A stretch of 64,000 nucleotides of DNA, from assembly GCA_951406725.2 (NCBI GenBank), contig OX597821.1:3348001-3412000 (forward strand), read 5' to 3'. Shown here piece after piece: positions 5,954-47,949 of this stretch. The notes beneath the pieces are model-generated. The model was given only the letters and a program-made list of their open reading frames with translations. It was not told where the DNA came from and did no database searches. The first letter of the stretch is position 1. Each line of letters begins with the position of its first letter. Position numbers and translations under genes: made by a program. The DNA is from Octopus vulgaris (Eukaryota).

Positions 5954-6015
<62 letters not shown>

Positions 6016-6018
<3 letters not shown>

Positions 6019-7820
6019 GTTAAATATGAAAAATCAACGAAAATGCATATTGCAAATAAAAAAGGCTATTTATGACCGGTAACGACAAATATATACATTT
6101 AGATTGACTGAGGTAGTAATAAGAGTCATAAAAGTCATTATTATGAGATGATTAAAAGATGATAATAAACTAAGAGAACGAAGCGAACCATGGTTTACGC
6201 AAAGCTATTCATCGCTTGAAAAAACACCGGCTAATACACGGTGTCAGGTCTAATAGTTCCTGAGAAAAAATATTATTTGTAAGGGAAGTAAGTAGTTCTG
6301 GATTTAGAGATGTGAGTGGTGTAGGAAGTGTATAGGGGTTAGTGGTTTCAATTGAAGAGTTAGTGGTATTCTGTACTGAGTTGTGTGTTCATATTTAGTT
6401 GGGGGAGAAATTTATCGATGAAAAATGTCTCTTTATTCAGCTTTTGTTGCATTGTGGTGTTCTGTGAATATTGGTAAAAGGGAAAGATTAGGAAATTGGG
6501 ATTAAGATTCCTGGCACACCTTTCTATGTGTTCACTTACCTTTAACGGTCTGTATTGTGGGTAGCGGATTTGCTCTTTGTGAGTGGTGATTCTTTGACAG
6601 AGCGAAATTCCTGTTTGTCCAATATAGATTTTACCACATTCTATGCATGTCATGACATAGATTACATTTACTGAGGCGCAGGTAAAATTTGATTTGATCT
6701 TAAATATTTCTCCTTGTTTGAATTGGAATTCTGAACCCTCCAGAAGGTGGAGGCATATTCCACAGTTAGAACGTCCACATTATTTCACTTTTGGATACAG
6801 TCTAGCGCTGGTCAATATCTTTTTCAGTGACTTCGGTTGCTTTTTGCTTTTTATAATTTTATATGAGCTTAAAATTTCGTTCATTGTTTTCTATGTGGTT
6901 GTTAACTATTCTAATTAAGATGTCTAGAAAAGGGAGTTGCTTTATGTTGTGTTCCATAATGAATTGTATATTGCTGTGTATGTTGTTGAGCATTATTTTG
7001 AAATCAAGGAGTTGATCCATGCTGCCTTACCAAAGAATGAAGCAATCATCTAAATATCTCTTCCAGTTCTCCTTTAAGTAGCAATTAAAAGAGGCGCCAT
7101 ATTTTTCTAGCGATGATTGGTATAACTTGAGTTCGAGGTAACCCATTACGAGGTTTGCAATCACTGGAGCAGCTCTGGTTCCCATTGCAATTCCGCATTT
7201 TTGTTGATAGTAAGTAGTATTGAACAAGAAATGATTGTTCAGCAGGATGAATTTCAGTGCTTCAATTATAAAATTGTGGTTAATTCGTCCTGAGATCGCT
7301 TCTGGGTATTTTTCTAGCCAAAATGTGATTGCTTCTATACCATAGTCGTGTGAATATTGGTGTATAGATTCACCACATCGAAAGATACCAGTAGTGCTCG
7401 GTCCTTTACTGTCTTCGGGAGGTGGTTCAGCATGTTTAGGTCATCCCTGATAAAGCTTTTCACATATTTTAAAAGAGGTTTTAGTAATATGTCTAGGAAG
7501 TTGCTCAAACGGTGGGTTTCACAAGAAGGGCCAGCTATGAAGGGTCTCAGTTTGATGTCAGTAGGGAGAGGGACATTAATGCATAGGCCTGTAGAGACTT
7601 TGCAGGTTTCACAAATGAGTGGATTTTTATGTATTTTGGGTAATCCGTAGAATAGACTAGGACTGTATCTGAAATTGGATAAATAGTCTATTTCATGTGG
7701 TCTTACCTGTCATAAATAGCCATTTTTTTTATTTGCAATGTGCATTTTCGTTGATTTTTCATGTTTTACCCTTACATTTCCACGTGTATTTTATATTTTC
7801 TTTTTGTAACATATTTCTAC
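6016..7820 (-). mobile_element. Penelope-like retroelement (RT + GIY-YIG endonuclease), 5'-truncated and internally deleted, between (TA)n tracts
   Basis: Minus strand shows FYGLPKIHK (about 7626-7652), VSFDVVNLYTNI, GIAMG and RYLDDCF (7027..7227), a Cys-rich linker CGRSNCGIC, and GIY-YIG-type CIECGKIYIGQTG...RITTH (6360..6653). 6017-6086 is the inverted copy of 7700-7771. Confidence 0.92.
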
Positions 7821-8379
7821 TATATATATATATATATATATATAATTTCAGCAAGCACAATTCGTGTTACAGCCACTTCAATTGTTTTCGAAGCCGTCAA
7901 TATTTGCGAAAGCGATGCTACGGACTGGTCACAGTCTAATGACTAATGCAAGAGAAATTTATGAAGTAAAGCAAAACAATAAAAGAATAGCAATCTATTC
8001 CTATATTATGTGTATTTGTGCGCATGCGTGTATGACTATTAAATATTAGTGTGATATCATATCTCCCGAGGCAGTATAACGATATATGAAATCGTACTTT
8101 TTATTAGTTCCATTCGTTCAAACAACCTTAGGCACAAGGCTTTGATGTATTTTTCAGAAATTAATTTAGCATTATTAGGTTTGCTTGTTCAATTAACATT
8201 GTCTTTCACACATCAAATGTTTACATTTGACAACATTGTCTGATATTATTAGTGGAAGTTAAATAGTGTAATTCGTTAGAAAGCTGAAATATCATATCAC
8301 ACGCAATCACATACATATATTCCTCCATCCCCCACATGATCAAAAGAACATACACACACCCACACTTACAAATATATAT

Positions 8380-14392: not shown

Positions 14393-14448
14393 GCCAGATC
14401 ACCCCCGGATTACATCTGATTTCGAACTGTTAGTTCTCATCAGTGAAC
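14393..14448 (-). ncRNA. Type I hammerhead ribozyme-like motif
   Basis: Minus strand: ttca CTGATGA gaac-taaca-gttc GAAA tca...tga TC tggc. Intact core, perfect 4-bp stem II, AUC cleavage triplet. Confidence 0.65.
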
Positions 14449-15156: not shown

Positions 15157-15506
<350 letters not shown>

Positions 15507-44706: not shown

Positions 44707-44768
44707 GGCGGTGCCCCAACATGGCCACAGCTCGTGAGCTGAAACTAGAATCAATCAATCAATCAATC

Positions 44769-44825
<57 letters not shown>

Positions 44826-45050
44826 TCACATGCATATATATTAAAATTCAATTATCCGCACCAACGCACGGTTGCAACACCATATTGGTATATTTACGTC
44901 CTCATAGCCCAGCGGTTCTTCAAAAGAGACCGGTTGAATATGTACCAGGTTCTAACAAAATAAATAATGGGTGCGATTCGTTCGAATAAAATTCTTCCAC
45001 GTGGTGCCCCAACATAGCCGCAGTCTAATGATTGAAGCAATTCAAAAACA
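44478..45050 (+). mobile_element. Cluster of SINE fragments split by (TA)n
   Basis: Family A head at 44478-44535, family-B-related segment at about 44550-44620, and tails ggtgccccaacatggccacag at about 44710 and 45003. Confidence 0.65.
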
Positions 45051-45070
45051 AAAGATCACCAAATGTAATA

Positions 45071-45219: not shown

Positions 45220-45586
45220 ATTATATAAAAAGGGCTTAGTAAAATAAATTACTTTGCCACATACTGAACTCATTAGAAATAGCAGCTAAAAAAATTTTTT
45301 TAACTATTTCTAATACTTTAAAGAAGATCTCTCTCATATAGTTTTTGCTCAAGTCAACTCACGAGGTATGGGGGTAAAAACATTAAAAAATCACAAATGC
45401 AAAGGTTTGCATTTGTGATTTTTTAATGTTTTTACCCCATACCTTCGTGAATGATTGAACAATTCAAAAACTATATGAGAGATCTTCTTTAAGTATTAGA
45501 AATAGTTAAAACAAATTTTTTAGCTGCTATTTCTAATGAGTTCATATGTGCAAAGTAATTTATTTTACTAAGCCCTTTTATATAAT
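45220..45586. repeat. Long palindrome (arms about 180 bp, 2-nt centre) between (TA)n tracts
   Basis: cacaaatgcaaa-gg-tttgcatttgtg is centred at 45404/45405. The arms pair out to ttatataaaaagggcttag / ctaagcccttttatataa. Confidence 0.95.
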
Positions 45587-45680
45587 GTAATAATTTGAAT
45601 TCGCCTTAAATGGTCCCTTTACATACTGAATACTTGGTGAAATTGATTAATAATTAATTAATTTTACCCTCAATTGTTGC

Positions 45681-45791: not shown

Positions 45792-45825
<34 letters not shown>

Positions 45826-45832
<7 letters not shown>

Positions 45833-46410
45833 TATATTGAGGGTACTACTATTCGTAGATTCCACACGCTAAGAGGGACCAACGCGGGCAAAACTACTAA
45901 AATAAACAAAATTTTACCGAATGCAAAACTTCAAAGCAAATCATTTAAAAAAAGAAATTAGTTACATATCACCTGTGATTTCGCAATTAATGCAGAATAT
46001 GCATTCTATGTTCATCAGTGCAAGAAACTCAAGAAATATAAGAAAAAACATAACCTTACAAGCTCGATAGCCAACCGTAGAATTCGTCGTAGCATGTACG
46101 AATGCTTATCTTTACATATCTATGAAAATGGCCGGCTTATTCGCAATGCATTTCGGTAACAAATTGCCTACTCGGAATAAAAATTCAGTATTGAACTATT
46201 CCGGTGAAAAATATAAATTAACAATTGAGGATAAAATCTTTAAAAGAAATTATCAGTAGTTAGCGTGAAAAACCTCGTAAGAGAAAAAATCCGTAAATTC
46301 TTCCTCTTTGAAAATATTCATTTATATTATATTGAGGGTACTACTATTCATAGATACCAACACGCTAAGAGGGACCAATGCGGTCAAAACTCCTAAAATA
46401 CACAAAATTT
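45826..46410 (-). mobile_element. Partial-tandem element (about 495-bp unit plus about 90-bp direct repeat) carrying a hammerhead motif, between (TA)n tracts
   Basis: 45826-45915 is repeated at 46321-46410. Minus strand 46023-45962: ttgca CTGATGA, stem II, GAAA tcac-ag-gtga TA tgtaa. Confidence 0.78.
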
Positions 46411-47949
46411 ATATATATATTATATATATATAACTGTCCTGGGATTTGTTCGACTAAAGTTGGTGCTCCACCATGGCCGTAGTCTAATGACTAAAATATC
46501 TAAAAGAATAAAAGAATAAATAACCTCTGTTTCTATAGGCATTTCTAGAACGATTCCTCTTTTGCAAATACAGTACGAATGAGAGTAAATATTACACCAA
46601 AGACAGATACAAAGAGAAATCATTTAGAAAGTATGTTAAAGATGTAGCATTTTGCCCTCTGTTAAAAATCTATACAAGAGGCAGCAGAATGAAAACACTG
46701 ACGACTCTGAATATAATGAAGAAACAGCCACATAGAATGCGTAATAATATAGGATATTTTTAATTTTGTCACACCGTAACAAACTAAGTAATGTTATCCG
46801 CAGGCTCAACTGTTAATGGCTCTCATTCTTTGGAGTATTCCTTAAAAAATAACATAAATATTCCGAAAAATTATATGAAATCATGCAAATAATTAATATA
46901 ACCAGGTTATAATAAAAATCACGGAATAGTAATAATAGCTAATACGTAGTTAACGAATATACAAGCATAAGGAAATACGCAGCAAATATGACCAAAAAAG
47001 GAATAACGCACAAAAGAAATGTGATACGATTGTATGACTACCGGCATATTACTGCTAATTATCTTTATGTCATCACGACGTGTATATCACTGTTTTCTTT
47101 CGTTAATTATCTGCAAATGTTTTCGATTCCGTAGAATGTTTGATTAAGGTTCTTCTTTTTTTTCTTTTGGAGGTGTGAAGTGGAGTAGAGGATGGAGGTG
47201 AGGTTGTATTAATTGACGGTAGTGTCATGGATATAATTATTTTTGTTCAGGGATGTGAAGATATATTTGTAAACACACACACACATGCACACATGCACAC
47301 ACACATCACACGCGCACTCACACATACATGCACATGTGTGCAAACACACACAGACACACACACACACTCAATCACATACAAACACAGAGACATTTATATA
47401 CATTTATATTAAAAGAGAAAGAGTGCGTGCTTGTTTGTGTGTGTGTATGTGTAAGTGCATGTGCGAACGCTTGTGAGTGTATGTGTATACATGTTTGTGT
47501 TTGTGTTTTTGTGTGGGTGTACGTGTGCGCGCGCGTGTGTATGTTGGGGAGAGAATAGAAGAAAGAGAAAGAGAAAGTCCTCTCTGGTAAATTTTTGATC
47601 ATGATTAACTAAGATCAGGTGAAGGTGATTATGTAATTATGTGCCATTTCCTATTTTTTAGAATAATATATTTATATCTTTAAGTTATATGGGAAAGCGG
47701 CGCCTATAATAATTTTCTGGATCTCTGAGTCAACCATGAATGAGGAAGTTTCCCTGGCACCAAACACTTTGCCCTAATATTTAGGAAAGTGTAGCCTATG
47801 ATAAAAACATCCGAGATGCCTGAATACTGTTATAAATAGTGTAACAGATGACGTGCAACAGCCATTGAGGTTACGTAAGGGTCTTAAAGTAAGAATCGAA
47901 GAGCTGGAAATAAATGTACTATGTCCCATTCCAATGATTGAAGCACCAA

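Follow-up and report, generated by a model that had tools for sequence, protein, structure and literature searches.

A dispersed family of non-coding hammerhead units in Octopus vulgaris, probably inserted into (TA)n tracts by a Penelope-type enzyme

Introduction

Animal non-LTR retrozymes, as presented in the available portions of the papers that describe them (Cervera and de la Pena 2020, PMC7229834; Li, Clavereau and Pollet 2026, bioRxiv 10.64898/2026.07.22.740005), are short, ORF-less tandem units of low GC content (<45%) that carry a type I hammerhead, range from 51 to 972 bp, and occur as dispersed monomers, dimers, and a few multimers. The available part of the defining paper proposes circular RNA templates, with Penelope elements as the likely mobilisers (PMC7229834), and vertebrate retrozymes have been tied to Penelope pseudo-LTRs by distribution and homology (bioRxiv 10.64898/2026.07.22.740005). 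Mobilisation of animal retrozymes by Penelope elements via circular RNA is, in the accessible parts of PMC7229834, PMC4209133, and bioRxiv 10.64898/2026.07.22.740005, a proposal without insertion-level demonstration.

Endonuclease-containing Penelope-like elements (Neptune/Nematis, Craig et al. 2021, PMC8557442; anole Poseidon PAc, Frangieh et al. 2024, PMC11167929) are described, in the sections at hand, as showing 5' truncation, partial tandems, inverted 5'-truncated arms, an optional tail that is often present at one end only, two internal starts downstream of the hammerhead, and microsatellite targets, among them (TA)n. In vitro, a Penelope protein cuts both strands and extends each, with synthesis starting at two internal RNA sites, the interval between them constituting the tail; the protein is predicted to be dimeric, and the start sites showed no strand difference in that assay (PMC11167929). 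The origin of the tail and of the inverted arms is so far only partly explained in the available text of these papers (PMC8557442, PMC11167929).

The octopus family described here shares with animal retrozymes the low-GC, ORF-less tandem unit, the type I hammerhead, the dispersed monomers and dimers, and a size inside the reported range, and by the sequence-level definition in the available part of PMC7229834 it is a new family of animal non-LTR retrozymes. It differs from those described in the A10.1-C11.1 combination and long stem II of its young subfamilies and in having copies of mostly 0.1–2 units with no long array seen. Its two fixed ends, strict one-A-one-B rule, and TA targeting are undescribed for retrozymes in the available portions of PMC7229834 and bioRxiv 10.64898/2026.07.22.740005. 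With endonuclease-containing Penelope-like elements it has the insertion features listed above in common; unlike them, it has no ORF, its tail measures ~103 nt rather than 30–40 nt, and the entire element is one 497-nt unit. Plant LTR retrozymes are likewise non-autonomous and hammerhead-bearing, with greater-than-unit genomic copies, but they have, in the parts of the same two papers that we could use, type III hammerheads in true LTRs, PBS/PPT, 4-bp target duplications, and Gypsy use (PMC7229834, bioRxiv 10.64898/2026.07.22.740005); the octopus element, with a type I hammerhead outside a ~90-bp repeat of variable length, is not of the plant type.

In the literature searched, which consisted of main texts and covered older Penelope work little, neither cephalopod retrozymes nor a one-end-each rule turned up as a subject, and a term search of the available main text of a recent octopus repeat annotation (PMC13282606) found no mention of ribozymes or retrozymes.

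Results

The window copy

The window, by which we mean the whole stretch of 64,000 nucleotides that was analysed (assembly GCA_951406725.2, contig OX597821.1, positions 3,348,001 to 3,412,000), contains on its minus strand a whole insertion arm of ~1.2 units (45826..46411), delimited by sequence comparison, which is truncated at its 5' end and finishes at a fixed site, A. The best other copies in the genome are ~95% identical to this arm. A single full turn of 496 nt (45915..46410; 32% G+C, non-coding) is present; across the family the unit measures 496–497 nt, with 497 nt as the family unit, its G+C content is 31–32%, and its longest open frame spans 69 codons.

A previous, sequence-only reading of this locus had described a 1.2-mer with a terminal direct repeat of about 90 bp, bounded by (TA)n. 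We recovered the repeat, whose upstream (46321..46410, 90 bp) and downstream (45826..45914, 89 bp, finishing at site A) copies lie 495–496 nt apart and are 91–92% identical, and we located TA runs on the 3' side (about 45797..45825) and the 5' side (about 46411..46432). The duplication therefore stands, but a fixed architecture does not: the length of the repeat is free to vary among copies, and since the arm begins at site A and ends after 1.2 turns, the "terminal repeat" marks the point at which synthesis stopped. The upstream copy is the 5'-truncated beginning of an additional turn and not a defined terminal repeat.

Site A (45826..45843, minus strand) consists of the CCCTCAAT motif and an A/T-rich patch, and we infer that it is a start of reverse transcription. 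A second site, B (46211..46231, minus strand), marked by the TCCTCAATTGTTAA motif, is internal in the window copy and serves as the alternative fixed 3' end elsewhere in the family.

The hammerhead that had been noted from the sequence is of type I (45962..46023, minus strand; predicted cut 45967/45966). Its stem I pairs TTGCA with TGTAA (46023-46019/45966-45962; 5 bp in the window copy, 6 bp in the family), the core CTGATGA occupies 46018-46012 and GAAA 45982-45979, and stem III, TCAC-AG-GTGA, has 4 bp and an AG loop, with AUA as the triplet. At the base of an extended stem II, A10.1 (46011) stands opposite C11.1 (45983), the A-C mismatch that had been noted at the first stem II pair. The window locus has one hammerhead only, so that no unit-length RNA can arise by double cleavage and no circle would be released from this copy itself, contrary to its description as a possible circle-former. 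Release of a unit-length RNA by double cleavage would need dimer loci, for which the genome offers 44 exact dimer matches as candidates; head-to-tail tandems with two or more hammerheads thus exist in the family, away from the window locus.

Other features lie nearby. The same TA-rich tract carries a head-to-head insertion of a sister hammerhead family (45222..45680; also represented by loci L226 and L227), which has a unit of ~545–565 nt, near-perfect arrays of 6–10 units, and hammerheads in which stem III is short and palindromic and the first pair of stem II is non-standard. It has the site-B motif in common with the window family, and the site-B motif of this sister family has 3933 exact matches in the genome. 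Three fragments of one repeat (44710-44730, 45002-45053, 46461-46512) presumably represent the 3' end of an octopus SINE. A second hammerhead-like motif, at 14443 on the minus strand, combines a perfect 4-bp stem II and a longer stem III with a triplet that does not look cleavable.

The family and its two fixed ends

Searching the genome (2.8 Gb) yielded 2170 candidates, 40 of which were scored, with matches on many contigs. Exact matches numbered 386 for the core pattern and 553 for a pattern in the repeat, as against 0 for the controls; 100 of the 553 repeat-pattern places were listed. These hundreds of matches across many contigs dispose of a duplication confined to a single locus. An initial hammerhead pattern with a short stem II had a single match, a deletion variant, and was dropped.

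We gathered 129 distinct insertions with at least 83% identity to the reference unit, a non-random sample made up of 30 top matches, loci from contigs 1–3 found by two patterns, and dimer loci; earlier subsets of 112 insertions (flanks, haplotypes) and 95 insertions (cut-site junction) are named where they were used. Arms range from 0.07 to 2.66 units and mostly from 0.1 to 2 units, and exact-register copies longer than the unit, as the sequence-only reading had supposed for the window copy, are the rule. In the hammerhead sense, 5' ends are scattered throughout the unit, while 3' ends cluster at two sites, A at unit position ~90 and B at ~193, ~103 nt apart, each directly preceded by a CCTCAAT motif and an A/T-rich patch. 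Nearly all of these ends run into (TA)n (86/86 A ends and 73/74 B ends among 112 insertions). Single-arm insertions account for 65 of the 129 and end at A (42), at B (20), or elsewhere (3).

Where single arms shared an upstream flank, it turned out to consist of microsatellites or of the 3' end of another TA-targeting family. Copies often sit inside the TA tail of another family, one ending TACCCT..ATT, as in the upstream flanks of L096, L105, and L109, which indicates that a CCCT motif near the 3' end is common to several families. Fourteen sequencing runs that we guessed to be RNA contain 0.20–0.34 of the words searched for; four of these, compared with the natural dimer locus L096, gave fragmentary contigs, mostly of 90–99% identity, that carry no strand, level, or circle information.

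One A end and one B end in inverted insertions

The remaining 64 of the 129 insertions are inverted, and all of them are head-to-head. In every one of the 55 with two defined ends, one arm ends at A and the other at B; neither A+A nor B+B was seen, and in the other 9 inverted insertions one end lies elsewhere. Assuming independent ends at equal odds, the chance of 55 A+B outcomes in 55 is ~3e-17. The junctions of 56 two-piece insertions (among 112 insertions) comprised 33 with an overlap of at least 1 base, 7 that are blunt, and 16 with extra bases.

As a positive control we used an ORF-bearing Penelope family of the same genome. The window contains a Neptune/Nematis-type remnant (6011..7826, minus strand) composed of RT, linker, and GIY-YIG, with a GIY-YIG match and a weak RVT_1 match. 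Its main arm has the short end and its inverted arm the long one, both in (TA)n; its clade was assigned from the CX2-5CxxC linker described in the available part of PMC8557442 rather than from a tree. A simple scan of the 3' region of this remnant gave no hammerhead. The Neptune-type family likewise has two ends in (TA)n, ~50–60 nt apart, and 10 of its 32 loci have opposite arms; all seven with two defined ends combine one long and one short end.

The retrozyme insertions display 5' truncation, partial tandems, an inverted arm, a tail at one end, and a microsatellite target, and with two fixed ends, the A+B rule, and TA targets as in Penelope, their footprint equals that of Penelope. A Penelope RT-endonuclease is therefore the likely writer of retrozyme copies into (TA)n. 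Three further inverted repeat pairs in the window, at 15247/15310, 53723/53762, and 31597/33170, contain CTGAAGA and are probably other Penelope-type head-to-head insertions.

The unit itself contains no ORF with a telomerase-like RT and a GIY-YIG endonuclease, that is, it is no autonomous Penelope-like element. The copies might nevertheless be 5'-truncated pseudo-LTR fragments of an unsampled autonomous Penelope element, given that their footprint matches that of Penelope elements (the control family; PMC8557442, in its available part) and that only 100 of the 553 motif places were listed. Against this, long copies run into a further in-register turn and not into an ORF, and none of 51 single-arm insertions has a PLE protein match in the 400 nt upstream, so that attachment of all copies to PLE ORFs, the other circumstance named in advance as damaging to a retrozyme, was not observed. 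Furthermore, the unit has no similarity to the 30 Neptune-type loci L196-L225 apart from a short TACCC/ACCC motif close to one end, and no autonomous element sharing unit sequence was found among this Neptune-type family and a handful of other PLE fragments. We regard the fragment explanation as very improbable.

Other GIY-YIG fragments found beside copies were separate insertions. At L286 (1-1450), the end of a Penelope ORF, together with a portion of its 3' UTR, is joined, with no TA run between, to a related retrozyme arm; as a single chimera among 25 loci of that PLE family, L286 was rejected as a parent element and reflects either a template switch or an insertion with deletion.

Support for the hammerhead and its history

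Neither Rfam nor folding of the motif alone lent support to the hammerhead: an Rfam scan at E<=1 returned no hammerhead family among 30 matches, only microsatellite-driven miRNA matches, and the motif folded alone was no better than shuffles (z -0.06). Folding the whole unit as a circle gave z -1.9 for the window copy and -3.7 for a young copy (25 shuffles each), which is weak evidence. The fold is backed by cross-family comparison of sequences: in 18 hammerheads of the window family and related families, 93.4% of cells pair, as against 20–47% in slid controls, and both-side changes occur at 5 of 7 stem I pairs, 6 of 10 stem II pairs, and 11 of 22 pairs overall, so that stems I and II show compensatory changes. 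None of 500 shuffles reached the covariation score, a count that is no probability because the 18 rows are related by descent; the invariance of stem III is built in by construction, as this stem formed part of the search pattern.

Related hammerheads also occur in a very young 481-nt family (L189:1-500; L266-L280), 63–70% like the unit, whose copies are 97–100% alike, form arrays of up to ~7 units, and have a compact hammerhead whose basal stem II pair is G-U. For RNA work it is a better candidate than the window family.

Ordered by divergence from each group's own majority, the insertions fall into three hammerhead groups: (i) G10.1-C11.1 with an AG loop (16 insertions, 3.4%); (ii) A-C with an AG loop (6 insertions including the window copy, 2.0%); and (iii) A-C with a palindromic stem III and a fourth stem II pair (85 insertions, 1.3%). 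On this ordering of sequences A-C is derived from G-C, inherited, and common to the young subfamilies, and amplification continued after it arose; a view of the mismatch as decay of the window copy is accordingly rejected. The same ordering reversed an alternative in which the palindromic stem III was ancestral and the AG loop of the window copy its decay. Old and young subfamilies show 43 consensus differences, none of which touches the 12 core positions; this invariance is not significant, since only ~1 change was expected.

The G-C pair at 10.1-11.1 is highly conserved in hammerheads, and those with a short palindromic stem III are dimer-dependent and weak in vitro, according to the available part of PMC4209133. 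The active fold lies 3.6–4.4 kcal/mol above the local minimum, and together with A10.1-C11.1 in the young subfamilies this predicted cost means that cleavage by the A-C hammerhead may be weak. Of 9 frog retrozyme dimers, 8 showed no cleavage in vitro (bioRxiv 10.64898/2026.07.22.740005).

Circular or linear template

Over 183 passes only 4 stops fall within 5 nt of the cut site, with ~2–3% per 11-nt window elsewhere, and no indel occurs at the cut-site junction in ~125 passes (95 insertions). As the cut site is crossed in register with neither excess stops nor indels, the template is not normally a cut linear monomer. By analogy with R2 work, jumps between RNA ends would be expected to produce both scars and run-off ends. 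The unscarred junction and the 4 stops in 183 passes thus speak against a scheme in which the RT, by template jumping, copies one cleaved linear monomer after another. That scheme would account for a monomer bottleneck without ligation, and it draws on two loci, L286 and L164, in which different RNAs meet in one insertion, and on a modest excess of 5' ends just beyond the cut (14/139 at unit positions 451–461, 6–16 nt past it). A T/A palindrome at 451–461 may explain this excess, and run-off from cleaved linear RNA could as well. On balance we hold end-to-end jumping to be improbable.

In L164 (1231-2330), the B arm comes from the window family and the A arm from a related family (~85% like L300 or L292). 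An A+B insertion across families suggests one enzyme and two RNA molecules, and the two arms of one insertion can therefore stem from two RNAs.

Haplotypes are largely shared within an insertion. At 60 shared polymorphic sites in 112 insertions, tandem turns agree at 2002 of 2071 pairs (1626 at random) and inverted arms at 1794 of 1847 (1484 at random). The two main young haplotypes, H1 and H2, are mixed in 0/16 arm pairs and 0/21 tandem pairs, with 3 tandem pairs called mixed within a turn. Seventeen of 183 private variants are present in every copy of their own insertion, where 0.8–2.8 are expected by chance. The shared haplotypes and private variants imply that new variants pass through a monomer that is later copied more than once, and such repeated copying, as read from these sequences, is simply explained by a circular template, which the data favour. 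Gene conversion between neighbouring copies could also produce shared variants. Counting against a pure single-circle model are L164, the excess of 5' ends past the cut, and L160, L150, and L025, with runs of discordant sites between turns.

The same family and Penelope enzyme could also use as template a linear multimer that was never cut, the transcript of a locus with at least two units; the hammerhead would then be dispensable or weak, and no circle would be needed. Missing stops at the cut site are equally compatible with uncut RNA; possible sources exist in the 44 dimer matches and in arms of 2–2.7 units; and amplification went on after G10.1-C11.1 had become A-C. In the anole Penelope, moreover, insertion was unaffected by hammerhead mutants, cleavage being unneeded in vitro and unprocessed RNA the main substrate (PMC11167929). 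What weakens the multimer is that new haplotypes in every turn and the 17 fully shared private variants need repeated passage through a monomer, that the length of progeny would be capped by that of linear parents, and that compensatory changes keep the stems paired across related families. Only one chain of three cores occurs among the 44 dimer matches, so that no long source array of the window family is seen; sister families, by contrast, have arrays of 6–10 units. An uncut multimer is a possible but rather unlikely template, and the circular unit-length RNA remains our preferred one.

Discussion

We think it probable, with some reserve, that the window locus represents a 5'-truncated member of a 497-nt hammerhead family, dispersed and non-coding, which is an animal non-LTR retrozyme, likely inserted into (TA)n by a Penelope enzyme and probably via a circular RNA of unit length. 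In the mechanism that we propose, loci with two hammerheads would be transcribed, and the RNA would cleave itself to a monomer that is then ligated. A Penelope enzyme, presumably acting as the dimer predicted in the literature, would introduce a nick in each strand of a TA tract; priming would take place at site A for one cDNA and at site B for the second, and each would go round the unit and halt at a random point. The two cDNA ends would then be joined head-to-head, or one of them would be lost, leaving a single arm as in the window.

A more specific version of this mechanism can be offered only tentatively. A Penelope dimer might extend the two nicked target strands simultaneously with a single circular hammerhead RNA as template, each strand having its own fixed start site (A or B). 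The lineage might also have kept spreading after the loss of G10.1-C11.1, acquiring a fourth pair in stem II and a stem III whose full palindromy may render cleavage dimer-dependent. If this is true, dual-strand copying of a circle would account by a single mechanism for three traits of Penelope elements, namely tail, inverted arm, and partial tandems, and retrozyme circles would be true transposition intermediates.

The one-A-one-B rule, common to a retrozyme and an ORF-bearing Penelope of the same genome, makes exact in vitro predictions regarding priming sites, strand, and more-than-unit cDNA from a circle. A short cis-signal for the insertion of non-coding RNA by Penelope at TA tracts would also be of interest for retrotransposon-based insertion tools. 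For the family itself, the footprint of its insertions would tie retrozyme insertion to Penelope enzymes, and it lends indirect, testable support to a circular template.
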